This document shows positions 4,148 to 57,000 of a DNA stretch of 64,000 nt, one piece after another (within the stretch, counting starts at the first letter, position 1; each line of letters begins with the position of its first letter). The notes beneath the pieces are model-generated. The model was not told the origin of the DNA. It did no database searches and saw nothing but the letters and a program-made list of their open reading frames with translations. Location of the stretch: positions 3,839,600 to 3,903,599 of the forward strand of contig CAJINV010000003.1 of the NCBI GenBank assembly GCA_905178155.1. The letters are read 5' to 3'. Made by a program: the position numbers and the translations under genes. This DNA is from Amoebophrya sp. A120. Taxonomy: Eukaryota > Protista > Dinoflagellata.

Positions 4148-7100
4148 ATGAAGCTTCGCCTCGTAGCGGTACTTGCCGTCGGGCGCGTGCTGGAAGATCA
4201 CTTGCGGACACGGTTCAGACCCGATGACGATACTGTGCACTCCTGCGCAGTGGAGGACATCTTCGCTCAGCTGGAAGACAACGCGACGACCCGGAATAAA
4301 CTTGATCATGGCCGCCGTTTCCACCAACCTATCGAGCCAAAGCGCCGCGATGGCGGTGCAGGCCCCTTCTCTCCTAGAGAACGACGGTCGCAGCTATTCG
4401 CGAACGCGGCCGCGCACGATGGCACCAGCAACGCGATGAACACCACTACGACAGAAGCTCCGACGGTGTTTGTCGCCACCGGCGGGTACCTGATCACGCA
4501 AGCGCCGCCCCCTCCGGAAGGGGTGTACAACCCCTGTAAGGGCGAAAAGCCGCCAGAAACGTACGAGGAAATATTGGCGGCGGAGGAGGAGGAGCGACAG
4601 GCGGAGCGGGACCGGGCCGCGATCTTGAACTTTGTTCTGATGGTGCTGATCGTGATTGTGCTTCTCCCGACTGTGATTTTTCCCATGCTGGGCATGACAT
4701 TCCTGTCCGGCCCGTTTGCGTTTCTGTACAAGGCACTCGCGGTGAACGCCATCCCGGAGTCGCGGTACCACGCGCCGCTGCAGCAAAACCCGGACGTTAT
4801 GGACTTGGAGTACCCCTGGTACAGTTTCACCGAGGACATGCAGTTGTGCGTGCACGTGTGCTGCTGCTACGCGGCCCGGGTGGTATGAAATGCAAAAGCA
4901 TCGTACTAGTATAAATCGCATGACAAATCTCCTCAGCGTGAGAAATAAAATTTGTAATGCGGATTGAGCCTGAGAAATAAATTTGTAATGCGTGAATGCG
5001 ATTAGTGCGAGTACTTTTGCACAGGATAGGTGGCCCACACGTACGACGCAGCGGAGATCATGCCCTTCTTATCAAATGTAAAAATGTCTGGGTCTGGAAA
5101 CTTGTGATGCTGGGTGGCGTCTCATGATGAGGCCACAAATGCTGGCTCAGCATGAGAAGTTTCTGAGCTTCTAGGTGTTGCCTATTCTGCATGACAAACT
5201 GCGTTTCTGCATCACAGAAAAATGGAGCGCTTGGGTAACGTGCGTGACAGCTTTAAGAGTCATGCCAGACAAGCATGACAAACATGCATTCTTCCAGACC
5301 CAGACATTTTTGCATTTCATACTTCTGGGACGCGTACAAGCGGGCGATCATCTTCAACATCTTTGCGGCCCCGGCGTTCTGCGAGCAGCGGTACCAACTG
5401 CGCAAAACCAAAGGACTCAATCACGACTGGTTTGACATGACCATGCAGGAACAGCGCCGCGCCATGGTGGAAAGCTTCGTGTGCTGCTTCTGCTACGCGT
5501 ATCAGGAAGCCAAGGAGTTGGACGATGCGGCACATGTCCAGATCGTTTGCTGTTGCCAAGTCGCGGATACCGAGGACAAATACGCCGAATTTCCTATTGT
5601 CGGCGCTGCGGTCGCCGCGAAAAAGGCCGAGGATACTTCTAGTACGGTAGCGGACAAGGCTGGCGCCCTCTCGAGACAGCCGTCGGGCGCGGAGTTGGGC
5701 AAGGAGGGAGGTACTTGCTACTATCCTGAAGTTCTGTATGTGAAGATGATGAAAATTAAGTTTTGAATTTTAGAAAATCCACTTTCTACAACTAATAGGT
5801 CTTTCATCATGATCAAAAATATCTGATTTCCTCCTTTCTTTCTGCAGTTCCGTTGACCCAGAAGACGCTGCAGCAGCTGGAGCAGGCAACCGGGGGTGAG
5901 CGTGGTCAGGCCATTCCTGCGGATCAGCAGTCCTTTGCGTCCAAAGTGATCCAGGATTTGGAATCACACGCCGGTGGCACAAGCCGCGCCTCTCCCGCAA
6001 AGAAGAAGGCTCTGGACGATCGTTCGGACGTGATGTCCGTTGCCTCGCACAAAGTTCTCCAAAAGTCTGTCAGCAAGGGAAACGAGCCCGAGGCTGTCAT
6101 GCAGCGCATCGGGGAGGATTCCCCGATTGGCGGCATGCAGCAACTGGAGGACGCCGCGGAGGGCGCTGGCGACGACGACGCACGAGAGCTCACCGAGGAG
6201 CAACTGGCGGCGCAGGAAGAGCGGCGAGAAAAGAGGGCGCGAAGGTTAAGAGAAAGACGGGCACTGGAAGCGACAATCACGGAAGACGAGCGGCTGCGCA
6301 AGCGCACACGCATCCAGAGCATACACGCGCGCGAAAAGGGGAAAGCGCCCGGGATTCCGTTCGAGGTGCATTCGTCAAAAAAGCGAGCCCAGATGGAGCG
6401 CGACCGCGCCGCGAAAGAGGAGCGCAAGCTCGCGGCAGAACGGGAGCGGCTGCGGGCAGAAGGTCTGCTGCCGCCGGAAAGCACCGCGTATTCCAGCACC
6501 GAGGACGCCATGACAGAGGTCGCGCGCACGGAGCGGTCCCTGCGCGGGGCCGTGAACGACTTGAACCGAGCCGACGGCGAGGCATCCGAGACGGATGTGT
6601 ACTCCATGCACACGAAACAGCGGTCCTTGAAAGAAAGCACCTACGCAACCTCGGAGACAACCGACGACTCGGAGTACTCCAGCACGTACATGGCGAAAAG
6701 GCAGGCGAAACAGATGCGGCGAAAGCAGCGCGCGGCAGAGAAGTCGTACATCGACAACGCGGACGACATCAGCGACGCCAGCACAACCGCAAAAGCACTC
6801 GCCCGGGTGAAGCTGCCCGGCGGGGTGTTCACGAAAAAGCAGTTCAAACGCCTGGATGAAATGAAAATCGTATAATTGCTTTGTCAAGTTTTTCTGCAAT
6901 TTGATAATGTGCGATTCCTGGGACGAGTAGCTCTAGACACAGATCATCGGGTTGTTTTTACCTCAGTTTTATTGCATCGGGATGTTCACTCGCATAAAAA
7001 CTGCAGCGCAAGCTTTTTCGAGAAGCAGATGCAGATCAGTCCGGCAGCATCAACATCGAAGAGTTCGGGTTGTTTTTGGACCGCAGGTTTGGCGTGCGGC

Positions 7101-13213: not shown

Positions 13214-14075
13214 TTGAAGTTGCGTATTTTGTACGCAGCGTCTTATTTTTTAGCGTTTCAAAGTCTGATTTCTTCCGAAAAGGAAGTTTCTCAGGGTTCT
13301 ACGCCTTCTTTATTCGATGATAAAAGGAGATGAGCTACATCGTTCTACTTCCGTTTGACGCAGAGTTGCGAACTCACTACAGAACGTAAATCTCTGCTCA
13401 GGTATTTTGATTTTTTGCTACACTGGTGGTAGCAGGCAACGATGGAAAACAAACGCATCCAACCGAACAAACAACGAAGCTGTGACCTTTGTCGCCTCTT
13501 TTTGTTCGTCCGATCCATGAGCAAGATTGCGCTGTGGCTAAATGTGGCTTCTGAGTTCCCCCGAAACTGTACTGCAGATCTATCATTCCTCTATCCGATC
13601 TTGTCTTCAGATGAAAATGCACTTGCCAAAATCGGTCTGTTTGGTTCAACAAGAGATCAAAGAATTAGCTCCAGGATTAGATAAAAAGGTTCTCAATCTA
13701 CTCTGGTTTGTTCGGTTGCAAATGAGCGTCAATTCGTGTGGAACAGACGATCAAGATCTTCATCAGCGTGGAATGGCACAGGCGCTCGCACTTCGAAATA
13801 TTCACCTGCAGATCAACATAGCGATTAAGATTGTTACAGCTTAACAAGTATTCATTGTGCCGTTTATGCACGCTGCCCTTTCAAGTGAGCCTATCTTTTT
13901 CAATTATTCTTATTCCATCACATTGATTCATAAGTAAAAGTATTGACTTCTATACTTACACGCACCTAATTGTGGACGTAAGCGAACGGCGCGTATCGTC
14001 AACTATCGGGAAGATTTGCACTGCAGATTATTCATAAGAACCTAAATCTATTGAACTATCTAGAAATTTTCCATC

Positions 14076-16785
14076 ATGGTGGGAGTAAAATCGCCTTTGC
14101 TAACGCTTTTTCTCTCTTCCAGCACGGTCCACGGGAGTGCCGCCGTCCGCCGGCCGAGATCCAGAAGTTGTAGTGCCGCAAGCGATTCGCATTCGGATTC
14201 TGAGGAATCGATGCACTTTTCCGACGCTCCGAGTCAAGGGGCCGCGTCTACCAACACAGGGCCAGAAGCCGAAACAGACGAAGCTTGGGTGGAGAGGGTG
14301 CTCCGGGAACTTGGCGAGGAGGAAGGATGGTTCCTCGCAGAAAGTGAAACGGTTGACGAGCAGAACCTCGCTGGTGCCAGGAGCCCGCGGAGTCGCCACA
14401 ATATTTCTTTTTGTCCTGCGACACCGCCGGAAGTAGGAACAGACTTCACTGGAGATTATGCGACGGAGACCTCAGAAAGCCCGGATGTATCGTCCTTACC
14501 GAGTGACCATCCGCGGGTATTTGGCAGCTTTTTGTTCGATCTTTTGCTCCGCGTTAGTGACTGTGCCTACGATGACGCAGACAGGGGGCGCAGGCAACGC
14601 AATTCGGCGCCTCCCGGGCGGGACCCGCGGAGAATCCCTCTGGCGCATGACTTTCGTCCGCCGCTCGGTCCGGAGGATCTTCCCCTTCCGGCTGGGAGCG
14701 ACTACTTGGAGGTGGATGAAAATAAGGACTTTTTCGAAATCGGCCCCACCCTGAGGCCGCTGGAAAGTACTACAGACTGGTATACGAATGCGGCACACAG
14801 CTGTCGCCTGGCTTCCGTTCCCCCGCTGCTCGACAAGGGGTCGCCCTACACTGAGATTATTGCGCATCTCGCCTCGTACACCACACTGGACGCCGTGTGG
14901 AAACCGCTCGGTCCGGAGCGGTTCCGCATCGAAGCCGAGAGACTGCGAGCGTCTGTGGCGAGGAACACAACTCTAGCGGACGGCCACCAAATGCCCGGCG
15001 CAGGAGCCTCGTATCCTGACGATGTACGACCGGTCACTTTCCACGGCGTTCCGCCGTCCCACTTGCACGAGGACGGAACTTTTCTCTACCAAAGATCTCG
15101 GAACGTTTCAGCTCACGGGCGCCTCTGGTTTCGGGGGCGAGACGATGAGGTCGATGGGCGCGGCGCGGGTTTGTCTCCTCCGGCGCAAGAGAGGCTTTTG
15201 CCTCCTCCGGACGGCGGGAGCAAGTATGAGGTCGCCCAGCTGTCCAAGGACGGCGTCTACTCCCTGCTGGTACAGGTGCTCAATCGGGTCAACAGGATGC
15301 AGCGCCTTCTGTGGAGGAGCGGTACTTGTTTCTCAAGACCATTTTCGACGATGAGCACCGGTGCGAATCGTGCGAACTTAATCGCTCGAGACGCCCGCGA
15401 AGAGGAGCGCACCGTGGTGGGCCTGGGCGATTCGGCCGTCCTCCGTAAAGAACTTTGGCAGGGAATTTGCGGTCGGGAAAATGCGCGGAAGAACTTGCAG
15501 CGGCTCACGAGGGTAGCAGGCAGCGACAGGCGGCTTTCCGCAAAGGAAAAGCGACAGCTGCGCCGGAGCGGCCTGAGGCCGACGCGGAGTAGGACAGATC
15601 CCACGGAACTTGCCTGGCGCATGGATCCAACCGTACGAGTCGAGCAGGAAGAGGCCGATCGTGTTGCGTTCCCTCCCGACAACCCAAGGAATGCGCTGTC
15701 AAAGGAAGCAATCGATCGTTTGCTGCCTCCAGACCAAGTCCAGATGCAAGAAGGGGTGGGCAACGCAATCGTCTACGAGCAGACCTTGCAGCCCGCCTTC
15801 AGCCGAGATCGGTTGCAGCAACTTCAGGAAACGCAAAAAAAACATTTGCTGAGGATCCGCCCGCTTCTGTACGCGAAAGGGAGTCAGTACCTCGAGCGCG
15901 GTGGAGCGCCGCACTTGCGGCCGTGGTTCCAGCCGCGGCGTCGCTCTCGGGCGCGTAAAGTGTTTGACGCGGTGTCGTCGTGCTTGGGAGAAAGTATGGC
16001 AGAGCCGGACTACGACGTAATAAATGGCGGTGTGTATTACAGGTCCGGACTCAACAGAGAAATCGACTTTGAGCCCGGGGAGGAGCACTTCCTGACGCAG
16101 GAGGAGCTCACGGATCGCGTCCAGCCCGTACTGTATGCGTTTCTCGAGGAAGTGAAGGCGTACTTGCTGTACGAGCTTGCGTCCCGGTCGCTGCCCTACC
16201 GGCTGGGCGGGCGGGAGCCGTGTAGCGGGTGCTGCGGTGAGTCAGATCCTAGCGTTTCCGAACGGGTGCGCAAGGGTCACGAGTCGACACGCAGCTGTAG
16301 CAATTCTGCAGGACTTCTTGCGCGCGCGGCGTGTCCGGGGCTTTGCTGCCCGAGTGTTGCGAGCTGCCCTGGCTTGATGCCGGGCATGGCTTGTGCTGCC
16401 TGTCCGACTGCAATTAGTAACTGCATCCTCGGCGATGCCCTCATTCCCAACTTGCAAAGGGCGTCACGACGTCGGATCGAAGCGGTCGCGAGGCTGCGAC
16501 TACCGCTAGAGTATCAAATGCAAAAATGTCTGGGTCTGGAAGATTGCCAGGTTTGTCATGCATATTTCGAATTACCGGTGATGTCTGTGATGCATGCCCT
16601 AGCATCACAGATTTTTAGAAGACTTTGTGATGCCTCTACCGCATGAAAAATGCCCTCTCCACGTAGCACAAAATGGAGTCCTTTTGCTGGTCATGCAATA
16701 CAAATTTTTTTAGAATCCAGAGACAGCATTACAAGTTTAGAATCTTCCAGACCCAGACATTTTTACATTTGATATAGAGTTCTAG
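14076..16785 (+). CDS. Hypothetical protein with hydrophobic N-terminus and Cys-rich C-terminus, paralog 1
   Basis: ORF from ATG 14076. After removing introner 16512-16774 it ends LIPNLQRASRRRIEAVARLRLPLEF* (TAG 16783-16785). It shares blocks with the next gene (LPSDxPRVFGSFLFDL, GSPYTEI, LGPERFRxEAE, DGVYSxLVQVL, SRTDPTE, AFLEEVK). Confidence 0.85.
16512..16774. mobile_element. Introner/MITE family A, copy 2 (263 bp)
   Basis: TIR TATCAAATGCAAAAATGTCTGGGTCTGGAAGATT...AATCTTCCAGACCCAGACATTTTTACATTTGATA. TSD TAGAG at 16507-16511 and 16775-16779. Confidence 0.93.
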
Positions 16786-17928: not shown

Positions 17929-20681
17929 ATGATAATTTTTGGCGCAACAACTACAGAAGAAAAAATGAGGACTCGGCTCCGAGGAATCTTTCTCGCCGCG
18001 CGGGCTATACTAGTACCCACGTCGATCTACAACATTGATGGAGCGCATGTTGTATCACCACCTACCACAGACGGCTGTGGAGACAGCGACGCAAGCTCTT
18101 GCTCGTCTGTCGAGTACTGCGACGAAGTTGATTACCAGGACCGAGAACTTTTTGAAATTCAGCGACCGTCACCGGAGTCCAATTCGAATTTTTGCGAACA
18201 TGGGGCTTCTGACTGGCTTGCGCGCGTGCTCCACGAACTTGAAGAAGAGTGGGCGCTCGATGCCGCAACAAGCGAAGCGGGGGCGGAAGTGTCCGACCGG
18301 ACTGATCATTTTAGACCCCAGCAGTCACCTGTCTCTGGTGCCGGTGAGGCGGACGCGCAGCAACATGGGCCAATAGACGCTGGCGTGCTGGAAAATAGTA
18401 CCCATCTACCGAGTGACGACCCGCGGGTATTCGGAAGTTTTTTGTTTGATTTGGTCCTGCAGCTGGACGCAGAGAGGTTGCGGTGCGCGTATTTCGCTCC
18501 CGACGGCGTTGGCGATGCGGACGTTATGACTCTCTCAAATCGGGACTTTAACGAGATAGGTCCCGTTTTGGGAAAGAGCAGCATAAACTGGCCGGCGTGT
18601 CCTGAGACGGCGAACCACTGTTGTGCGTGTTGCACCACGTCTGCTTCTATCAAATGTAAAAATGTCTGGGTCTGGAAGAATGCGAGGTCTGTCATGCGTG
18701 TCTGGCATGACTGAAAAGTTTGTGATGCGTGTCCAAGATGAGACCCGTATACTTGTCATGCACAAACCCACTTTGTCATGCGGAAAGCGCTATACTAAGC
18801 AGCGCGGATATTTCTCATGCTTGGCTGTGCATTACAGAGCATTCACTCTTCCCAACCTTGCATTACAAGCTTCCAGACCCAGACATTTTTACAGTTGATA
18901 GCTTCGCTCGAGGACCGCGGGTCTCCGTACACGGAGATCGTGGGTTTGCTTGCGTCCTACGCTACGCCTGACGGAATCTGGAAGGCGCTCGGACCAGAGA
19001 GGTTTCGGGTAGAGGCGGAGAAGGAAGCCGCGTCAGGACTTCGTCCGGGCGGTAGAAGGGCGTGGTCCGCGTCGGGGGAGGAGAGGAAGCTGAAACAAGG
19101 AAAAGACGACGGCAGTAGACCAGAACACTTTCGTGGGGTGCCGGCACCACACCTTCACGAAGGTGGGGCGTTTCTCTTCCGGCAGGTCAATCCGGAATCT
19201 GACGACTTGCAAGAAATCCGGTATGGTTATCGCAGCATTTTTAGCTGGACGCGCGGCCGCGACGACATCGAGGACGAGGACCCTGAAAGCGGTTTTTTAC
19301 AACGCGATCGTCCGCCCCCTGGACAGGAGGCGATGTTGCGGGATGGAGATACGAGTCAATACAGATTTGCCGGACTGTCTGACGATGGCGTCTATTCAAT
19401 CCTGGTCCAGGTTCTGGGTCGCGTTCGGAGAATGCAGCGGCTTTTGCTTTCCGGGTCCGGGGGTCCGAGCTCGCAGACTACAAGCAGTATTGGCGAAAGC
19501 GGGAGAGCAGGCAGCTTTGATGAAGATGAAAACGACGAGAAGCGGTCTGTTTTCGGCTTGGGTGAATCAGCCATGGTTTGCCACGAACTTGCAACGGGGA
19601 TTTGCAGTGGGGAAAATGTTAGCTACGGGCTCAAGAAATTGTTGACGGGGAAGGGTGCCTTTTCGGGGCCGACGCCTAGCGACGTTTACCGCCTGCGCCG
19701 GTTGGGTTGGGTGCGACGGCGGAGCCGCACGGACCCGACGGAGGTTGTTTGGACGAAGGATTCGAATGCGCCGGACCCGCGCAGCCTCCCGCGTGAGGAT
19801 GTGGAAGTCTTGCAGGTCTTGCCGCCTGCGCAAGTGGAAATGCAGCAGCCTCAGAATGATCTCGCGCCAGGCAGCGAAGCGACGCGGCCGGCTCTTAGCG
19901 ATCGACGACTCGCACAGATCCAGCGTGTGCAGCAGTGGTATACAGTTGCGCAGCGGCCTCTGTTGTACTCGAAGTATGATATGTGGATTCATAAAAAGCC
20001 GTGGTATCGGCCACAACGGCGTGGCTGGAAGGCGGCGGTTCGTGACAGGGTGGCGGACTGCTGTTGGGGCCCTGTAACGGAAGGTCTGCGCGATTGCTGC
20101 CTCGGCAGAGATAGTGCCAATGCGCAGGACCCGCAGACCAGACTCTATTTCCGTTCCGGTATGAACGCAGGCCCCGTAGCGGACGTGATCACGGACGACT
20201 TGGACCTTCCGCTTTCCGAGGAGGAAGGTTTTTTGACCACGCAAGAGTTGCAGGATTACGTGAGCCCCGTTCTCCATGCGTTTTTAGAGGAGGTGAAGTC
20301 ATTTTTGCTCTATCGCCTCACGGAGCTGTCGTTTCCGTATCGGCTTTGCGGCAAGAATCCCTGTGGCGGTCTACTTTTCGGAGAAGCGCCAGAGGTGGTC
20401 CAGACCGCGCCTCCGGGGGAGCAGCATCCATGCTGTTGTTGTGTTCCCCCCGCGGAAGACTGCAGCAGCAACGCCGCGGCCGCCTGCGTCGCAGCGTGGC
20501 TACCAGTCTGCTGTGGCTTCTGGTGTTGCCCGCTTCCGAAGGTGGAAGTAGGTCTCTTCACTGCAACTATTGGCAAAGGTCTCCTTCCTGCACCGGCCGA
20601 CTGTGCGAAAACCTGCGTCCTGCAGGATGTCCTGCTTCCGAAATTGCAGCGAGCTGCCCGTCTCCGTATAGAGGCCGTTGC
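17929..20681 (+). CDS. Hypothetical Cys-rich protein, paralog 2; its 3' end is interrupted by the repeat/insert array and the native last codons lie at 24594-24615
   Basis: ORFs 17929-18714 and 18817-20928 join after removing introner 18648-18900 (T-S-A-S-L-E-D-R-G-S-P-Y-T-E-I). Colinear with paralog 1 up to PKLQRAARLRIEAVA. The expected continuation RLRL... followed by a stop is found after the fifth repeat. Confidence 0.85.
18648..18900. mobile_element. Introner/MITE family A, copy 3 (253 bp), inverted relative to copy 1
   Basis: TIR TATCAAATGTAAAAATGTCTGGGTCTGGAAG...CTTCCAGACCCAGACATTTTTACAGTTGATA. TSD GCTTC at 18643-18647 and 18901-18905. The interior resembles the reverse complement of copy 1. 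Confidence 0.93.
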
Positions 20682-21812
20682 AGCTGTTCTCCTGATTGGC
20701 CTTCTTCTGCGCCGTCCTCCCGCAAGCGTTCTCCATACACCAAGGGCACCAGCGGCTGCACCCACTGCAACACATTCTGGTTCCCCTCCGCCAGTGCGAC
20801 GAGAATACGGTAGGCGTTCAGGGTTTCGGTCGCGCCGAGCTGCTTCTCGACCAGTGGCAGCGAGTTCACCAAAATCGTGGCAATCAGGAATTTATCCTGT
20901 GCAAAAGTATCGTACTGTACTCGTATAAATGCTAACGCATTACAAATTTCCTCAGCATGAGAAATAAAATTTAAATTTCTACCTTAAGGAAAAGATTTGT
21001 ATATGCATGATTGCAATATATACCAGTACGATACTTTTGCACAGGATAGAATTGGTACCAGGATTTTGAAAACTTCGGAAAATCAGCGGCAGTAGAGGAG
21101 GTCGATGTTCCGGGAGGAGGTTTGGTACCGCTGCCTTCTTTGTGGTCTGCTACTTGTGCCCCAACAGCACTAGCTTTCGACGAGTCCTGCTCCCTCCACG
21201 TGCTGTCCGTAGCACCACCTCCATTCCCGACGTGACCACTGAAGTAGTCCGGCGGTGCGGACAAGATGCACAGTCCGTCCTGCACCAATCGGGAGTAGAG
21301 TTCGAAGCAAAACTTTCGGTGGTCGGTGGGTAGGACCGTGGAATCCAGAAAACCCGCGTAATATTCCACGTGCTCCCATTCCTCTGGATGCAATACCTTT
21401 TCGTACAGGCAGGCGAGAGCAAATTCATTTCCACCGCACAGAAAGAGGTAAAAACATGCTACCGCGGTGCGGAACAAAAGAGCGCAGAGGGCCCCCGCGT
21501 TGTAGGGGTCGTGACTGGACCTCGAATGGTGCGTGACGGAGCAACATCTTCCGCTCTTGAGTTTACCCCACGCGGACGGAGGCAAATAATGTTGGAAGAA
21601 AGACCGCAGGCGAACTCTTCGCTTTCTTTCTCGCGTTCTAGTCCTGCGGCGCCATCTGCAGCTTCCGGAACATCTGCCTCGTCCTGGACGATGTAACATC
21701 GTCCATGTTGCAGCATCACCTCGTGGCTCTTGTGCACTTCGTGCCGGGGCCGCATCTGCACGGCCGCGAGACACTGCCTTATTGCCCTCCGTTCCTCCAC
21801 GGCACATCGCAT
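20682..21812 (-). pseudogene. Captured minus-strand gene fragment (insert 1), truncated at repeat 1
   Basis: Minus ORFs 20971-21807 and 20567-20872 join after removing introner 20893-21048 (FSKSWYQF-LIATILVNSLPLVEKQLG...). No own stop before the repeat. It is the only convincing minus-strand coding sequence in the window. Confidence 0.6.
20893..21048. mobile_element. Introner/MITE family B, copy 2 (156 bp)
   Basis: Perfect 25-bp TIR TATCCTGTGCAAAAGTATCGTACTG. TSD GAATT at 20888-20892 and 21049-21053. The interior (CCTCAGCRTGAGAAATAAAATTT) is shared with 4884-5028. Confidence 0.93.
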
Positions 21813-22406
21813 GGCGCTTCTGAGAGGATTGGAACGGAACGGCCCAGCCTCACACCTTCCTTGTATTTCTGGTTTTGCAGTTCTTCCTGGCTCGGCCTAA
21901 AATACTTAAAGTTTAAGTATTTTAGGCCGACCGCGATATACTACTAAAATACTCTGGTTTAAACCAGAGTCAACGATGTTAGCACTCCTCACGACGGACC
22001 AACCGCGATCATGTGCTCTTAGAAGTCGTCGAACCCTCCAATGGGTTGCCGTTTTCTGGCGTACTGGCTGTCGCGACCGAAGAAGCCAATGCAGGCCAAC
22101 ACGACACTGACCAGCAAGGCAAGTAACACGTAGTAGGCAAACATGATTTTTCCGAAATTGCAGCGAGCTGCCCGTCTCCGTATAGAGGCTTCGCTGCTTC
22201 GAGGCTTGTCGCGCGGCCTTGGCCTCGGCTTTGGGGCTTAGCGGCGGCTCTGGGGCTTGGCCGCGCGGTCTCGACTTTGGTTTGGGGCTTTGCCGCGGGC
22301 GCGACCTCGGCCCTAGGGCTTTGGCGCGCGGTCTCGGCTTTGCTTGGCGGCTGCCCGCGCGGCCCCGGCTTTGGGTTGGGCTTAGGGTTTCGGCTTAGAT
22401 AATAAG

Positions 22407-22640
22407 CATAGCGAATAACAATAGCGAATAATAATAGCGAATAACAATAGCGAATAACAATAACTAATAGCAATAACTAATAGCAATTAGTCACTGTAAT
22501 TAGTCATTGTAATTAGTCAGTGTAATTAGTCATTGCAATTAGTCATTGTAATTAGTCATTGTAATCAGTCATTGTAATTAGTCATTGTAATTAGTCATTG
22601 TAATTAGTCATTGTAATTAGTCATTGTAATAGCGGATACT
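22407..22640. repeat. 13-bp-period compound minisatellite
   Basis: AATAGCGAATAAC-type x4, AATAACTAATAGC x2, AATTAGTCATTGT-type x11 (22485-22627), then AATAGCGGATACT, all in unbroken 13-bp phase. Confidence 0.9.
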
Positions 22641-22645
22641 TGTCT

Positions 22646-22710
22646 TTTATATGTCTTCGCACTAGCTATTTACATGTCTTCGCACTTATTTACATGTCTT
22701 CGCACTTATA
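22646..22710. repeat. Short tandem repeat, three copies of ~20-22 bp (TTTAYATGTCTTCGCACT core)
   Basis: Directly visible just before repeat 3. Confidence 0.8.
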
Positions 22711-22764
22711 GATTGCAGCGAGCTGCCCGTCTCCGTATAGAGGCCGTTGCGCGGTTGCGACTAT

Positions 22765-24615
22765 ATGACCAATTACAACACCATGACGATTACCCTTGGA
22801 CAGAAGGACGGGCTTCGGCGTCTTTCCGCTGGACCCCCGATGCGTCCGCCGCGCGAGCAGAAGAGCGGCCCCAGCTGGTTCGTCGCGTTGGCGATCGCCG
22901 CGGTGTCCCTGGCTGTTGGAATTTGTTTTTCTCCGACGTTTCTTCCCACCGAGTTATCAAATGCAAAAATGTCTGGGTCTGGAAGAATGCAACTTGTGAT
23001 GCTGCATTTGGATGCCTGAAAAATTTGTGTTGCATGATGAGCAGCAAAAGGATTCTAGTTTTTGCTACGCGGGGAGCGCATTTGTCATCCGGAATAGGCA
23101 TCAAGAATCCCTCAGAAAGCCCTTGATGCTAGGGCATGCATCACAGACATCATGGCTCATGCAACACGTGCGTGACAAGTCTCAGAATCATCCAGACCCA
23201 GACAGTTTTACAGTTGATACGAGTGCCCGAAGTGCAACTGCCCGCCTTGCGATCGCCGGGAATTGAGGCCGATGGAGGTGGTGGTGAGGCTTGACAAGAA
23301 AACAGCGGGGAACGACCCCGTGGAGGCGACCAAGAAAAATAATTTTGCTTTCTCCCCTTTCAAGGACGACACGAATCCCGCTGCCTCTACTTTCGAGGAT
23401 CACTACTTTTCGGCCGAAGTGCTAGACCCGCAGACCTTGAAACCGCTGCAATCTGACACCACGCGGCTCGTGGAAGCGCTAAAAAGGGCCGACGGGGTCT
23501 TTGGGCAGCTCGCGGTGAAAAAAAATTCGCCGGCGGTACTAGGGCGTGCAACTACTTCTACTAGTAGCCAAAACAGCAACTTTGTGTCTGTTCCGAAATT
23601 GCAGCGAGCTGCCCGTCTCCGTATAGAGGCTGTTGCGCGGTTGCGTGCGTGCATGCAAAAGAAGGAAAATTCAATGTACCACGAAGGCCCGGCTTGTACG
23701 CGCTGGTCGGAGATTATCGACGCTGTCTTTGACGAATGTGGCAGCTTTGACTCGCTTGTAGAGGCTGGCGGTCTCCTGGCAGGATCCAGCAACTTCGAGG
23801 TCGCGGAGTACATTCGTGAGAAAATTGATGGTAACAGCAAAAACGCGATGCAGGGCGTCGTGTACTTTGAGCCGCGCGGGTCCGGTGAGTGGATGGTTGT
23901 GAATCTGAAGGGCGTGCATGAACCGTTGGCAAAATCGCCACTGCATGAGGCCGATTGCTTTGCCTTCTACGATCAGTCTCGAACGCGCGGGGCAGACTTG
24001 AAGCTGAAACACGACGCGCATGCCATCGTCACGGTGGCACCCGGAATGAACAAGGATCAGCTCATGCAAGCTGTTGGGAGGCTGCGAAAAATTCACTTCG
24101 CGCAAACCGTGGCATTTTACGGGCCGCCAGAGGTCACGAACAGTATCCGAGAACAATGCAGCCTGCCGTGCGCGCAGCTGAACTCGGTAGACCTCCTCTT
24201 CTGGGTTACTCTGAACACCATCCACGCCGTCGAAAATGCGTTGCTACCCTGGGCTTCGCAAGGAGGTACGTACTGTGCAGTGGGCGGGAACGCCTCCCGA
24301 GCCTTGCTCGACGAAAAATGCGACTTGACAACGTTTTATGGTGCCTCGACGAAGAAGCAGCTTATTCGTGACGTCGGAAAGAGAGACTTTGAAGGTCAGA
24401 TGCGGCAAGCTGCAAAGAGATTCAAAGAAGCGGAACGCTTGCGCACACTGGCAACCAGTAATCCAGATTCGCAGCAAGCCCAAGGTCGCACAGGAGGTAC
24501 TCTGCCTACGGGAAAAGCCTGTGGCGGAGCCTCCTGTTTCGAGTACACGCCGAAATTGCAGCGAGCTGCCCGTCTCCGTATAGAGGCTGTTGCGCGGTTG
24601 CGACTACGGCAATGA
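22765..24615 (+). CDS. Putative chimeric ORF: TM-protein N-terminus (insert 3) + repeat 4 + DUF3638/DUF3645-type protein fragment (insert 4) + repeat 5 and native stop
   Basis: ATG 22765; removing introner 22955-23219 gives ...WFVALAIAAVSLAVGICFSPTFLPTECPKCNCPPCDRRELRPMEVV..., continuing in ORF 23263-24615. The motif FYDQSRTRGADLKL...VTVAPGMNKDQLMQAVGRLRK...QTVAFYGPPEV resembles the conserved block of the giant DUF3638/DUF3645 proteins. Expression unknown. Confidence 0.5.
22955..23219. mobile_element. Introner/MITE family A, copy 4 (265 bp), inside insert 3
   Basis: TIR TATCAAATGCAAAAATGTCTGGGTCTGGA...TCCAGACCCAGACAGTTTTACAGTTGATA. TSD CGAGT at 22950-22954 and 23220-23224. Confidence 0.92.
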
Positions 24616-30700: not shown

Positions 30701-33700
30701 TCTTTGAATGAGGGAGATAAACTTGTCGAGTCTCCTGCTGATGTTTTCGAAAAACCACGCAATCTCGACGTCACGCCGTTCAACATCAACGCGTTTTCCG
30801 AGAGCTCCTACTGCAAGGAAGAAGACGTTCCCCCGGCAATCGCCGACGAGCGACCGCAGCGGATTGCGTGTCTCGCGCCGGTGGTCTACCACCAGGAACG
30901 GGCCATCATGGTGAATCAGTCGAACATGATCGCGCCCTACTGCGACGACTTTGTGTTCTTCGTGGCCAACCGGAGCGCGCCGGAGTACTTCAACGGGTTA
31001 TGCATTGCGAATATGTCTGGATCTGGAAGGTTGGAACTTGTATTGCTGGTCTTACATGCCTGTGAAATCTGTATTGCATGACTAGCAAAAGTCGCAGCCT
31101 CTCTTTTCATACAAATACGCAGCCTCTCATGCTGATTGCGTATGAGAAAGCGTTCTGCAAACTTGTCATGGCTTGCTGCGTAAGGAAGTGTTTTCATCAT
31201 GCACATTTTAGCATCAGAACTTTCCAGACCCAGACAAATTTGCATTTGATACGGGTACCGGGTGCACAACCTGGACATTATCTCCGACGAGTGGCTATCA
31301 AAAGTAAAAATGTCTGGGTCTGGGAACTTGTGATGCTGGGTCGCGTCTCATGATGAGGCTACAAATGCTGGCTCAGCATGACAAGTTTCTGAGCTCCTAG
31401 GTGTTGCCTATTCTGCATGACAAACTGCGCTTCTGCATCACAGAAAAACGGAGCTCTTGGGTAACGTGCATGACAGATTTAAGAGTCATGCCAGACAAGC
31501 ATGACAAACATGAATGCTTCCAGACCCAGAAATTTTTACAGTTGATAGTGGCAGAACGAGTACCGCAGCCCCAACGGCGCCGAGAAGTATGGATTGCAAA
31601 TATGTCTGGGTCTGGAAGGGTTGGAACTTGTGATGCAAACTCTGGAACACACAAAAATTTGTGTTGCATGAACGCCAAAAGCTGTCCATTTCTTGGCACG
31701 CAAGTAGGAAGTTTCTCATGCGGGACAGGCATCACAGGGCGTGCTCAAAACCTGTGATGCTTTTGCCAGCATCAGACACCATTTGCGTGATCCGAAATAT
31801 GCATGACAAATCTTGCAATCTTCCAGACCCAGACATTTTTGCATTTGATAAGAAGGAGAACGCGATGATGCTAGAAGCCTACTTCTACTACTTCTTTCCG
31901 CAAGCGCCGCGGATCACGGAATTCCAGAACGCCTGGCTGGGGGACCGCGCGCCACTTACGGAAAGCGGAAACCCGCAGGACGAGGACGACGATATCTTCT
32001 ACAATGGGGTGGCGACGAAAACGAAAAATGTTAAACCACCTAAGGATGAAAAATCGGCTACGAAAGAAACCCTTATATTACCGGAAGCTGCTCCACAAGA
32101 CAGTGCCAATAAAATCGCCACGCTTCCCGGCGAAAGTCTGTACCGGTTGGACAAAACGAAGCCGGATTTGGGTCTCCTATTACCAGACGACGAGCACGTC
32201 GTGGATGTGGACGAAAGTTGGTTACACTGGCAGAAACAGCACATCCTGGACCATTTCCCGTTCGACTTGCTAAAAAGCGCTGTTGGAACATCATTAGCGG
32301 GAGCAGTTGCAAGTCATCTCGTGGACATGGTGAAAGAGCTTTTTTCTTCAGACCGCTATGTAAACGAAAAGACGCGGCTCAGCTACTTGCAGAACGCCGT
32401 GGGCGCGCAGTCCTTGTGGGACGTGCTGCGAACGGGGACGTTTCAAGGAAAAAGCGCTTTTGAAAACACTGATGCCGTGTTCATAAAGGAAGAAGATGCA
32501 AACGCAATGGCGTCAGCAATTCTAGCGCACTACTGCAATCATGACCGTGGCTCTTCTGCAGCAAATAGTAACGTTTCTTTCACGGAAACGGAAGACCGGA
32601 TTATTTTGGAGCTGGGTTTCCGTAAAGTCTCGGATCCGTCAGTGCTGGGTCCGATCAGTCCAGAGCACTACCACAAGTTCATTCTGCCGCCCGCGTCTAC
32701 GGTAGACGCGGGGGATGATCAAAGTTTCCAGAGCTGCATCCGGGCCGCGGAAAGCCGGCTGTTTGCGCGCATTTTGCGGGACGTGCATCGGCGCTTCCGG
32801 GAATCTCGCGCAAAGTGGTACGAGCGGAAGGAGTTTCTCAGCGGCACGCACGACCTCATGTTTCACCTTTACCCAGCGGAGAAAGGCGTGGGCAGTAGAG
32901 ATGTTGACAAAGGAGAAGCACAAGCAAAAGCAAAGGAAAAATCCGCAAAAATCGCGGGCTCCGACGCAGTGAGCAGAGGCGAAAATGACCCACGTTTTAT
33001 GCACAATGCGCACGTTATTCGCGACGGGCTTTTAGAAACCGATAGCGAACTGTTTTCCGCATACGATCAACTTGAGTCCGAGCGCATCGGTCTGCTGAAG
33101 CAGGGCGCCAGAGCGCCCTCTGTGTCCATTTCGCGAAAGTTGCAACGTGTGCGCAAGCGCCAGGGGAACCTGCTGCGTGTGCTGCAGAGCAAGTATCGTG
33201 GCAGTCCCGAGATGCAAAAGCTGGTGGCAACCTTGAAAGGTTCAAAAGCGGCCGAGGCCAAGTACTTCGCGGACCACAAAATTGAGCTGGAGGGGGTTTC
33301 ACCGGATTCGGCTTTTTCTGGCGGTGGAGAACATCATCATCTTCAAGGCAACACGAAAAGCGAGCTTCCCGATTGGTATTGCCAGATCGAGTCGGATTTG
33401 TATTTCATCCCCGAGAATTTCGAGCGCTTTGTCAATCTGCGGAACTTCGACGCCAACATTCCGTACTACCTGGGTCACATTTGGACCACGATCACGGACA
33501 AGGTGTTCGGGTTGCAGCGTACGGGCTTCAGCACGGAAGTGACGCAGGGCCTCTGCGTGTCCCGCAAGGGCTTGCAAATCCTGGCGGAATTCTACAAGTA
33601 CTTCTACATCGGACGGGCGGAGAAGTACAAAATCCTCGTGGCGGAAATGGAAAACACCCACAATTTATCGATCAACCAGCTGCTTGCCTCGGAACGGGTG

Positions 33701-47749: not shown

Positions 47750-49350
47750 TAGCGGCCCGCTCGCTGCTGCGCAGATAATGGCGCGCGGACTTGCTGAACT
47801 TGTGCAGTTCGTGCGAGCTGCCGGGCCCTGCGTATTCTGCTCAAGCACGCAGGACGGCGCTGCCCGTTTTTCTTGCGTGCCCCCCATTGCGAGCCTGGGA
47901 AGTGGGTGGGCAGCTCGGTGGCGGCGGGCGTCACCGCCCCCAATTTGGAGCGGTTTTGGGTCGGCGCCAAATGTCGCTGGGGCGCGCCTGCACGCGGCGG
48001 CCCGCCCTGTGCAGAGGCCGCAGCATGCGCGAGGAACGCGCCCGCCTGGCTGGGCGCCGACGCGGGCCACCTTCCCATCCGGGTGTGGGAGAATCCTGTG
48101 AGTTTTGGCGCTCCCAGACGACCGGGGGAGGGTAGTCGGGGGCTTGGCAGCCGAACGCGCCGCCCTCGCTCTATGCCCCCCGCCTGCAGAAGGTGGGCAG
48201 CCATTTGGCCGGCGCCGGCGGGCCTCCGAAGTGTCCCGGTGGGCGCGCGATGTCCAGGGGATGCAGACAGGCGGCAATGCCCAGGGCCGCCGCGCGCTTC
48301 GTGGGTGCAGCATACATGTCCCGTGGGCGCGTGGTCTGTGCGCGCGAACAGATGCGGTTGTCGGGCGGGTTTTTGCAGTGCTTCAAGCCGCGCGCCCCGT
48401 GGGATGGCCACCACAAGGCCGCGCCAGCGGGGCCGGCGGGGGCGACCGGGTGGCCTTTGCGAAAGAGCGGCAAGGGGCATGGGATCCATCCGCCGGAAGG
48501 CCAGCGGCGTCGGCCTGGCTCGGCTCTTCTGATTATTGGGAGAACGTCGCGACTTCGTCCATGTATTGGCACAAGCACGCCAGGCCGCACTTGCTGAAGA
48601 ATAGCTGGGGAACATACACGGCGAAACACGCACCAGCTACAACCGCCCCGCGCCACCAGGGCAGGCCTGCGACGCCGGGGCGGGCGGCGCTTCCTTTTTT
48701 CGGGGCGGCCGGCACGAGTCCTCAAGCCAATGTGGCATGCGGCAGGGCCGTCCGGAGTGGCTCATTGTGCTAACGATCGCCCCGCGGAGATCTGTCGCTC
48801 GCCCGGCTTCCCGTCATGCAGGTCAGCGACCTACGGGAGGCGCCGGGCGGGGGGGGGTGACCTCGCTCGCCCAGCCAGGCGCCCCCCGGCCCGCGCCCGT
48901 CGCCTGTGCGATGGGCACGCCGCCCCTCGGGCGGTAGGCCGCTCGTTGTGCCTTGGCCACGTGCGCCCCTGCTAGCTTCCTTCGTTGGGCCGCCCGCCGC
49001 CGTTTCCATTCCGGGAGCCAAGTACCCCCGCGCGCCTTCCTGTGGACCCATGGCGCGCAGCGCGCTGCCTGGCAGCGGGGGGTGGGCCGGGGCTCGCTTC
49101 GGATTTCGCAGCGACCCAGCCCGGAACCTGCCGTATTTATGAATAGCAGGGCGCCCCGGCGGTTTCAGTTTGGCGCGCTGGGCAGGGAGCCTTTCTGTGC
49201 CCGCAGCCTATCAATTTGTTGGCCCCGCACGCCGACCGCCCCCCTTCGCTCAATCTTGTGGGCCCATCGGGGCATTGTTTGCCACCGGGCGGCGCCCGCG
49301 GGTTTGTGCGTGTGTTGTGGGTCCTTTAATTGCAGCCCTAGCGGGAATCC
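47750..49350. other. Second GC-rich island, probably non-coding
   Basis: Same composition and G/C-run character as 110-1700. Only short overlapping R/G/A/P-rich ORFs. Boundaries approximate. Confidence 0.5.
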
Positions 49351-54023: not shown

Positions 54024-57000
54024 ATGTCGGCTGCCACGACGTCTTTTCCGCCAGCCTTTACTGCCCCTGGCGCAGCAGGAGACGGCAACGGCAGACCTGC
54101 GACAGGTGGGATGGACGGCAACGCCAGTGTCCTTGCGGCGCAGCCGCAGTTCGGCTTTGATCAACATCACTTGCAACAGCAGCAGCCCGTGTCAACTACT
54201 GCCACAACGGCGGGGCCGGTGGGAACGCTTTCGAGCACAAACATCTCAAATTTCACCCAAGCCGCAGGCGGCAATCTTGGCGTAGCACCCAACAGCACGA
54301 CAACGGCGCAGCAGATGCAGGTTTCCCAGCAGACGCAGCAGCACGTCGGCTCGTCCGGTTTGTTCAACGCCAGCGCGAGTAGCAATATCATGGTCAACGG
54401 CACGACGCCGCAGCAACAGGGGCAGCAGACAGTAAACGGTGGCGCGGCTACTTCTACGGTGCAACAGCAGCAGGGACAACAACCTCCATTGCACCAGCCG
54501 CGGCTAATACCACTGCCCATGCCGCCGCAGATCAATCCGGATCAAGTCACGACACAGCAGCTGCAGATCCTGCAACAGCAGCAGCAGCAGGCAATGCGCC
54601 CGCAGCAGCAGCACCAGCAGCAGCAAGGGATGCTGCACGTGCAACAGGGAGGACCGCAACTCGGGGCGGGTCAGAACCATCTACAGGTGTTCGATCCGCA
54701 GCAGAGCCACAGTTTGCAGCTATCCTGAGTAAAAACGTACCCACACCAGAGTCAAGATGGCCATTTTGCAACACAAACCTAGAACCTTTGGGGGTCACGC
54801 ATCACAAGTTGCAGTCCGTAGTGTAGTGCAGGTTCGCAAGGCCAGCTGCATCAGAAACCCATCTGCTCATCCTGTTTACAGCATTACAAATTCCAAAACA
54901 CGATTGGAAATGGCTCTCATGAGGATGCGCATTACAAGTCTTCCCGTCTTTGCAAATCTGCATGACAACTCTGGTGTGGGTACGTTTTTACTCAGGATAG
55001 CAGCAGTTCGGCGCACAGCCGTTCAATCCGGCGCAGTTGTATCACACAGAAAAAAGCTGGCAGGTCACATTTGTAATGCAAAAATAAATACACAAAAAAA
55101 ATCTGTATTGCGTATCCTAAACAGCATGCTATGAGGCCGCCCATGGCAGATTTTTCTGTGTATTTATTGTTGCATTACAAATATGCCCTGCCAGCTTTTT
55201 TCTGTGGGATAAGTTGAACGGATTGCAAGGTACTATGGTCGATCAACAGCAGAGCCAGCAGCTGCAACATCAGTCGTTGCTCAACCTAGATCACCTTCAT
55301 AACGCAGTCGGCGGCATGGGCATGCACCAGCAGATGTCGTCGACGTCTGCGGCGTCCTCCACCAACAATCCCGGGGGTTCATCTGCCGCCGCACCACCCT
55401 TCAAGCCTTCCTCAACTTGGAATACCCAGGCGGTGGACTTCGTGCCGCAACTACCACAGAACCGCAACATAGGCGCGGTGCAGTTAGACGTCGCCAGCAG
55501 CTGCCTGCCCTCCCTGCCCAATAGTGCAGCGGACCAGAAAAGTACGCCCGACACTGTAGCGTCCACGGCGGAAAATAGTCAGCAGCAGAGCAGCACGTCT
55601 GGGTCGACCGTTCCGCCACCCCCGCCGCCGCCGCCAGGGAATGGTACTACTACCGACGCCCAGGCGCAACAACTCGACGCCAGCAAAGTGGTTGAGAGCA
55701 ACAACATGATGGGCGGTAGTGGTTCTTGTACAACGAATAACAATAACCTGGTGCAGCTGGTGCAACAACAGCAGCCAGAGTCTGGTGCAACGATGGCCGC
55801 GAGTGGCTTGATGATGGAGAATACAGCCACCGCACAGGACGCTGGAGGTACAGGCGGTGGCACAAGCGGCCTCGAAAATCAGCAAGCAAGTAATCCAAAT
55901 ATTAACGGGGCGGCCGCGGAACAGCAGGATCAGCTCGTCTCAAGTAGCGGTACTAGCAACAGCAACAATGCCGGTCCGCAGCAGCAACCTGGAGGAGGTC
56001 CTTCCTCGGGTGCAGGTGCTAGCAACGGGTCAGGGGTCTTGATGCCTGGTCAGCAACAGCTGCAACAGCTCCTGGCTCAACAACAGCAGAGCAATATTCC
56101 GAGCGGTGGCTATGGCTCGTTGAACGTGGGAACAAATCAGGCACCTGGAGCGCAACATCTCCAGCACCTGCAGCAGCCACACGCAGTGGCAGGCCAAAAC
56201 AACAATCCGTCGGGCGGGGGTATGATTTTCAACGAGGTTTTAGACCAGAACAGCTTGCAGCTCGGCTCGACTAGCATGTTGGGCACGACACAACTCGGGA
56301 GTAACTTTTCCGGCACCAGCAACATGCTGGACCAGAATGGTGGTAATAATTTCGGGATGAACAATGCGCCCCCGCAGCAGCAGCAACAACAGCCGTTCGG
56401 AAACTCAGCGGACCAGGTGATTTCTCAGCACAACTCGCAGTTCAACATGGGAAACACTACCAACACGACGCTACTGTCATTACCGCAACAGGGCGTCGTA
56501 TCAAGTAACAGCATGCAGCTCGACAATGGGCAAAGCAACATAGGGGCAGAAGGCGGCGGCAACAATTCCTTCTTGGGTAGTGGTGGCGGCGTGGTGAGCC
56601 AGGCACAGTACAACAGTTTCCTGCAAGCCCAGCAGCAGCACCAGCTGCTCGGCAACATGGGCGGTAGTGGCGCCAGCGGGAGTAATCTTATGCCTTTGCA
56701 TGCAGGGAACTTGACTCTCGAACAGCAGCAGCAATTGCTACAGGCTAGCAACAATCAGCAGCAAAATCTCGGCCTGCTCAACTTGAACAGCGGCGGACCG
56801 CAAAGCATAGCGCTCGCACAGCAGCAGCAGCAGCAGCAGCAGCAGCAAACACAAGAACATCAGCTTCAGCAGCACAGCCTTGTGCAGCAACAGCAAGGGA
56901 ACAATAACACAGCATCTGCGAGCAGCCGTGGTCTCAACGCGAACAGCGTTGCGTTTCAGCCGATGCAATCACAGCAGGTCCGAGATCAACAGCAGTCGCA

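Follow-up and report, generated by a model that had tools for sequence, protein, structure and literature searches.

The stretch of DNA analysed here, hereafter the window, comprises 64,000 nucleotides of Amoebophrya sp. A120 (assembly GCA_905178155.1, contig CAJINV010000003.1, positions 3,839,600 to 3,903,599) and holds, at the 3′ end of a protein-coding gene, an array in which the gene's own terminal coding sequence alternates with four fragments of foreign DNA. The host gene as annotated (P0004, 915 amino acids; 17929-21095, plus strand) belongs to no Pfam, NCBIfam or Atlas family; the last 20 codons of the gene in its uninterrupted form occur five times, interleaved with the foreign fragments. 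Two proteins encoded in the window are recorded at NCBI as products of Amoebophrya sp. A120. A 33-bp core within these codons has exactly five matches in the window, all on the plus strand, at 20643, 22157, 22712, 23598 and 24555, and the spacers between the five core copies measure 1468, 521, 827 and 904 bp (inserts 1 to 4, left to right). Joining 20681 to 24594 gives the reading PKLQRAARLRIEAVARLRLRQ followed by a stop codon; that is, excision of 20682-24593 restores a normal gene end, EAVARLRLRQ and stop. In each of these respects a preliminary description, made from the sequence alone, is borne out. The final 84 codons of annotated P0004 are insert 1 read antisense, with a stop at 21095.

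Numbering the target from the first base of the core as +1, copy 1 (20636-20681, on the plus strand like all the others) runs on from the upstream host coding sequence to +39, and its last 3 nt are common with the donor of insert 1. Copy 2 (22150-22190) spans -7 to +33 or +34; copy 3 (22712-22763) spans +1 to +52, its first 3 nt matching the continuation of a related copy of insert 2; copy 4 (23591-23645) spans -7 to +48; and copy 5 (24550-24615) extends from -5 downstream and carries the original stop codon. In copies 1 to 5 the core is followed directly by C, T, C, T and T, and the copies are therefore not identical: copies 1 and 3 are C variants, and copies 4 and 5 T variants. The target duplications at inserts 1, 2, 3 and 4 measure 46, 33, 59 and 53 bp, a wider range than the 40-55 bp first proposed, and their left ends (at -7 twice, at -5 and at +1) all lie within 8 nt. 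The duplication lengths, ordered as 33, 46, 53 and 59, fall close to a 10-bp ladder (n=4). Repeats make up 6% of the array, yet were the target of every insertion event. As a control, exact direct repeats of at least 25 bp at a spacing of 100-5000 bp were sought throughout the 64 kb, and only the core and one pair of introners, elements considered below, were returned. The core pattern had no matches in metagenome contigs or viral contigs, and a comparison of the target with Rfam gave nothing at gathering score, with no known RNA gene there. Predicted folding of the core reaches -3.3 kcal/mol, a value equalled or undercut by 46% of 2377 33-mers of the host coding sequence; the idea of a hairpin target was dropped because the core is unremarkable among them.

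An upstream paralog offers a comparison. It shares 36% identity (296/813) with the host protein and carries the homologous peptide once, with no insert, as originally described; the single unbroken target lies at 16444-16502 on the plus strand, and after removal of the paralog's own introner the reading stops 5 codons past RLRL, at almost the same point as in the restored host gene. The segments 14064-16646 and 17929-20681 are tandem paralogs, and their orphan family is marked by a hydrophobic N-terminus and a Cys-rich C-terminus. A search with the host protein returned its own record alone and missed even this paralog, so that the absence of relatives is weak evidence. The paralog's introner starts at 16512, 9 nt downstream from the counterpart of the target's right end; this proximity may be coincidental or may reflect a site accessible in both genes.

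Confidence that the array exists in cells rests on its eight junctions (J1 to J8, left to right), which we compared with contigs from 6 of 11 listed public runs. The published assembly of the strain is Illumina-based, with long reads used to check chimeric joins (PMC7789003). Runs X1, X2 and X7 derive from one sample, perhaps the assembly's own source, and X3 and X4 from a second sample and study. No run is recorded as RNA in the run listing; X3 is treated as RNA on the splicing seen at a host-gene introner, and X4 on the spliced length of its 1367-bp contig only. Seven of the eight junctions are present in read-derived contigs, and all seven in the RNA runs. J2, J3, J6, J7 and J8 are crossed by contigs of X3, in which a 636-bp contig has a length that fits J5 through J6, spliced. 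J1 and J5 are present both in DNA run X2 (contigs of 57 bp and 80 bp, respectively) and in X4, where the 1367-bp contig begins at J1 and is as long as spliced insert 1 up to and across J2, implying J2 there as well. J7 and J8 lie together on a single 964-bp contig spanning insert 4, in both DNA run X1 (42.4x) and X3, and J3 is implied in DNA by the depth arithmetic of X2. Further runs contribute less: raw reads of X9 placed 9 reads, at introner ends only, and X7 is noisy, with most junctions uncovered.

Read depth also fixes the number of targets. Single-copy depth is about 45x in X1, and in X2 the junction contigs stand at 22.5, 24.7 and 22.8x against 27.2x for the flank. In the depth bookkeeping of X2, with J1 at 22.5x and insert 4 at 22.8x, the T-variant path (60x) and the C path (43x) add up to 103x, while the core itself stands at 99.4x. 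The same bookkeeping reproduces the bins of X4 exactly, resolves the unlisted records of X2 without residue and reveals no extra core exit with at least 30 matching bases. With the core at 99.4x and its exits at 103x, at 21-27x per single copy, there are about five core copies in the genome, and the array is thus not the terminus of a dispersed mobile element—one of the outcomes that the preliminary description had named as fatal to its own reading. Contig depth is not taken here as a ranking of expression.

The inserts have different origins, and inserts 1-3 have diverged second copies elsewhere in the genome. Insert 1 (20682-22149, minus strand, 1468 bp) is an inverted piece of another gene with upstream DNA. 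It stands at about twice single-copy depth in X1, where the listed variants outside its introner are 10 substitutions and 3 indels. Read in the minus frame, three of the four substitutions of the 3′ part are synonymous, which marks insert 1 as an inverted piece of a real gene. The suggestion that insert 1 ends at the start codon of its gene was unsupported: the ATG at 22144 opens a 41-codon open reading frame (ORF) in both alleles (22022-22144, minus strand), with a hydrophobic N-terminus and a start 5 nt from J2. Within 290 bp of insert 1 (21685-21970) lie three of the window's six perfect palindromes of at least 18 bp (21, 39 and 20 bp), possibly a fragile donor or an origin-like stretch.

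Insert 2 (22191-22711, 521 bp, unstranded) combines a degenerate telomere-like tract at about 22200-22395, a 13-bp satellite at 22408-22630 and three 20-mers. It holds the densest telomere-like tract of the window, with two occurrences of TTTGGGG, a motif reported at A120 scaffold ends (PMC7789003). Its related copies include a 99.8x contig with 5 substitutions in X1, against 45x for single copy, and two contigs that depart at 22670; the satellite had no matches in metagenome contigs.

For insert 3, the donor-derived part (22771-23577, plus strand) consists of the first 175 codons of P0006, preceded by 12 nt of its 5′ flank. P0006 is a 575-amino-acid protein with a weak SET match (E 2.7e-4, below cut-off), encoded on another scaffold (11.76 Mb) than the array locus (11.99 Mb). 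Insert and donor are identical at 171 of 176 columns; five substitutions are synonymous and five are not, with no sign of selection on the fusion. Listed divergence from the donors is at least 10 substitutions in about 1310 bp for insert 1, about 10 in 540 bp for insert 3 and 5 in 120 bp for insert 2.

Insert 4 (23646-24549, plus strand, 904 bp) is an internal piece of a DUF3638/DUF3645-family gene. It shows 60% identity to a metagenome DUF3638/DUF3645 protein, its best named relative comes from Amoebophrya A25, and it sits C-terminal of these domains in its relatives. By depth and by its unbroken contig insert 4 is single-copy in DNA, and so no close donor remains; the protein search covered 528-2000 amino acids. 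Insert 4 has moved, lost its donor or come from outside. No viral relatives of inserts 1 and 4 were found. The earlier identities thus stand for inserts 1 and 2 (inverted gene fragment, satellite or telomere-like DNA), while insert 3 is the N-terminus of the weak-SET protein in place of a transmembrane protein, and insert 4 is placed beyond the family's domains. Self-BLAST and a repeat search found no common ends or terminal inverted repeats among the inserts, and the donor flanks seen carry no repeat.

The scars at the junctions are informative. All four junctions with a known donor flank show either 3-bp microhomology or 7-13 nt of filler. J1 shares 3 nt with the donor flank (the 57-bp contig seen in DNA merges at 20679). 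A 3-bp overlap exists at J4 too: there, insert 2's related copy continues into the same 3 nt with which the repeat opens. J5 carries 7 nt of filler (22764-22770, plus strand) from neither side. Together with the next 8 nt, this filler gives a 13/14 match to the inverted satellite of insert 2, and among 63,635 14-mers outside insert 2 it is the sole one to match that satellite within one mismatch. Such a unique inverted match suggests local templated synthesis. J6 carries filler of 12-13 nt (23578-23590, plus strand), placed by the end of the donor protein match. Poly(A) is absent from all eight junctions: runs of A or T within 25 nt of them reach 5 nt at most. Recurrent break repair with templated insertion, a mechanism already raised as a candidate, fits these scars.

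While the product of the array is mostly disruption, one fused ORF encodes a predicted protein (P0005, 526 amino acids; 22765-24615, plus strand). Its frame stays open across three junctions, from insert 3 through copy 4 and insert 4 into copy 5 and to the original stop, and RNA contigs cover it. Inserts 1 and 3 each contain an introner that the earlier reading missed, at 20893-21048 and 22955-23219, both unstranded. Both have the inverted ends, 3-5-nt direct repeat and splicing by which Amoebophrya introners are defined, inverted-repeat introners being described in PMC7789003. The element in insert 1 has a 5-bp target duplication, and the 1367-bp contig of X4 has the length of the spliced form. 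The element is apparently removed in the direction of the host gene (P0004 and the X4 contig). Without it the minus-strand donor frame is restored as well, a hint that it can be spliced out in both orientations; the contigs give no strand. The element in insert 3 is absent from donor DNA, where record 8 of X2 reads straight across the site, and the array copy thus most simply gained it after capture. Its use as proof of a DNA template for insert 3 was dropped, the donor being without it.

The window contains eight elements of introner type, all with inverted ends and an exact 5-bp target duplication: 5070-5321, 16512-16774, 18648-18900, 20893-21048, 22955-23219, 31296-31547, 54721-54999 and 55040-55211. 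The one at 18648 is spliced in run X3, and such elements are already known for Amoebophrya. Between 30999 and 31850, ends of one introner family are adjacent or nested in both orientations. Elsewhere, 1-2000 and 48001-49000 form islands of 68-71% GC against a background of 53%, with a weak 34-nt repeat common to both.

The ends of the target copies allow the order of events to be constrained. Under a model in which each event splits one existing copy, we tried all 24 orders of the four inserts; five fit, and all of them have insert 3 arriving ahead of inserts 2 and 4, with insert 1 also preceding insert 2. A single C/T change after the arrival of insert 3 accounts for all five copies. In every fitting order, insert 2 entered an isolated 59-bp copy with foreign DNA on both sides; if the assembled order is right, neither position nor flanking chromatin was the guide, and the targeting information is likely to reside within the target sequence. 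The donors, their unequal divergences, the one shared C/T change and a consistent order together uphold the earlier proposal of serial, site-specific capture with long target duplication.

How might such an array have been built? The explanation that we favor, at a probability of roughly 55%, is recurrent staggered cutting by a putative agent, with capture of DNA during end joining and a duplication that regenerates the target. The agent would make staggered cuts in the same sequence on four separate occasions; repair would fill in both overhangs, and end joining would capture a stray DNA copy between them. Each event would duplicate the segment bounded by two cuts, which may fall on two sister chromatids, so regenerating the target, and each repair would leave two fresh targets. 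The events would be serial, recognition would lie within the 59 bp, and the captured material would be DNA copied from elsewhere. Candidates for the cutter include a site-specific retroelement endonuclease without its own RNA and a Spo11- or topoisomerase-type enzyme; insertion into the isolated copy favors a site-specific nuclease.

The cutting and the capture each have a precedent. Paired nicks 46 nt apart yield tandem duplications, with cutting and repair recurring in rounds (Schimmel et al. 2017, PMC5730883). As proposed for the array, the stretch between the nicks is duplicated (46 nt there, 33-59 here), trimming is variable, microhomology is used and the regenerated target is cut again. 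That system differs in relying on engineered Cas9 nickases in mouse cells, with short local inserts, whereas the array is natural and inherited and holds ectopic fragments of 0.5-1.5 kb. Yeast HO breaks (10.1101/2024.03.07.583931) capture copied genomic fragments from distant and telomeric donors, with 0-4 bp of microhomology and short inverted foldback filler, as in the array, but without long target duplication, as single events at an induced break and mostly in repair mutants. Mouse SPO11 double-cut hotspots (10.1101/2020.06.23.168138) provide a natural, recurrent cut site with duplications, ectopic inserts and short microhomology; the inserts there are 15-349 bp and lie inside deletions, serial arrays are lacking and the hotspots are far wider than 8 nt. 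PMC7789003 makes no mention of meiosis in Amoebophrya.

Several points weigh against recurrent cutting and capture. The cutter is hypothetical, no second such array is known, and the target, not being unusually structured, gives no physical reason for fragility. Donor flanks are known at only four of the eight junctions (J1, J4, J5 and J6, the last via protein only), and the apparent donor at J4 lacks 36 nt, and two 20-mers, found in the window and is perhaps a sister copy. J4 itself, between insert 2 and copy 3, is absent from all six runs: 22671-22711 is uncovered and a 38-bp core contig is unbroken there, which could reflect the loss of a thin path, flanked by deeper nodes, when the graph was cleaned. 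Contigs built at k=31 cannot phase across a 33-bp core, so the order of inserts is the assembly's. The existence of a fitting order is weak evidence alone, since 240 of 576 shuffled end arrangements also allow one. Insert 3 starts 12 nt upstream of its donor's ATG, for which an RNA template would fit better, and insert 4 must postdate insert 3 and yet has no donor.

A bolder form of the idea holds that a dedicated system—a sequence-specific nuclease and its repair—repeatedly opens a self-regenerating 59-bp target, loads it with gene pieces that include extra-genomic DNA (insert 4) and so builds fused genes. We consider this doubtful. If true, this would be a eukaryotic acquisition array; further sites would exist across the genome, and isolates would differ.

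Among rival explanations, the best placed is a site-specific non-LTR retroelement that nicks the target and reverse-transcribes unrelated RNAs in trans, by target-primed reverse transcription. One duplication end is clustered and the other variable, as this would produce; CRE elements form target duplications (PMC3636483), R9 makes target duplications of 126 bp (PMC9977147), and non-LTR retrotransposons are present in A120 (PMC7789003). The start of insert 3 close before the ATG and the introner-free donor also suit an RNA intermediate. CRE, SLACS and R9 share with the array a fixed target and long target duplication, but insert their own reverse transcriptase-encoding sequence into multicopy RNA genes, whereas the array holds four unrelated, non-element fragments in a single-copy protein gene (PMC3636483, PMC9977147). 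Nor do the inserts show a reverse transcriptase, an endonuclease, poly(A) or a 3′ end in common; insert 3 has filler on either side, insert 1 is in antisense orientation and takes in upstream DNA, insert 2 is non-coding satellite, and the 15 ORFs scanned contain no reverse transcriptase or endonuclease family. Retroelement insertion accounts for the long duplication but not for the cargo, and we judge it unlikely; the earlier analogy with SLACS/CRE integration is likewise unsupported.

Unlikely, too, is a single replication accident in which the nascent strand left and returned four times, copying distant templates and re-copying 33-59 bp of target. Microhomology, locally templated filler and retained donors are also marks of template switching, and no recurring nuclease would be necessary. 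Against a single accident, the C/T difference is shared in blocks (C,C versus T,T), donor divergence differs among inserts and insert 4 lacks a donor; moreover, four returns to within 8 nt would still need explaining.

A third proposal is that an enzyme recognises the target and integrates captured DNA as its function. All four events fell in one 59-bp sequence, including an isolated copy, and three in-frame junctions build an annotated fused ORF that is present in RNA; the frames alone would arise about once in 27 by chance, a figure judged post hoc. Variable ends, filler, non-polar growth and the lack of an integrase nearby speak against dedicated acquisition, as do inserts 1 and 2, which give no sensible product. 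The balance of synonymous and other changes in insert 3 fits a neutral copy beside a constrained donor. We regard this proposal as improbable.

Very improbable is an artefact of assembly or library, or real pieces placed in the wrong order. The unseen J4, the unphased order and the possible origin of X1 and X2 from the assembly's source sample would allow it. However, seven junctions recur in read-derived contigs, all seven in RNA from the second sample and study, junction depths lie near flank depth, the exits sum to about five copies with no unexplained record, and donor divergence and later introner gain are impossible in a library. The integration of repeat-carrying circles by homologous crossover, described for transposed Arabidopsis genes with flanking repeats longer than 30 bp (PMC2869330), is likewise very improbable here, as the donor flanks seen lack the repeat (contradicting the model for those donors), core depth leaves no room for copies elsewhere and a circle of donor plus excised target would still require repeated cutting at the locus.

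The array also differs from systems that it resembles in outline. The likeness to a CRISPR array or an integron, drawn at the outset, holds for layout and fails for mechanism, given variable ends, non-polar growth and junction filler. In place of the constant, exact repeats of a CRISPR array there are duplications of 33-59 bp with filler, the inserts run to 521-1468 bp and all five fitting orders require internal late insertion rather than polar growth; no Pfam match to a cas1/cas2 integrase was found in the 15 ORFs scanned, a subset of those in the window. An integron would offer a hairpin site of attC type and precise junctions, while the core folds unremarkably and the junctions are imprecise. 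Pack-MULE or Helitron capture would leave common element termini, which the captured pieces lack. By the marks of templated insertion, a donor is retained for three of the four inserts, insert 4 being the exception, and microhomology or filler is present wherever the donor flank is known. The array is not a CRISPR array, an integron or a retroposon; it is best read as break capture with long target duplication. Our literature search, which reached few subscription papers, yielded no naturally occurring array in which unrelated captured fragments had accumulated serially at one coding site of a eukaryote.

In the array, four captures at a single 59-bp coding sequence have been recorded naturally and passed on; the junctions can be read, and the order of events can in part be dated. 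A relative of the dinoflagellates is thereby implied to have an uncharacterised cutter, probably directed by sequence, whose cuts are staggered by 33-59 nt. Because the target is defined and small, a search for the cutter is feasible, and other sites can be found by a simple genome scan. More broadly, the array illustrates how break repair can lead to a gene that is fused and transcribed, here in a parasite whose proteins evolve fast.

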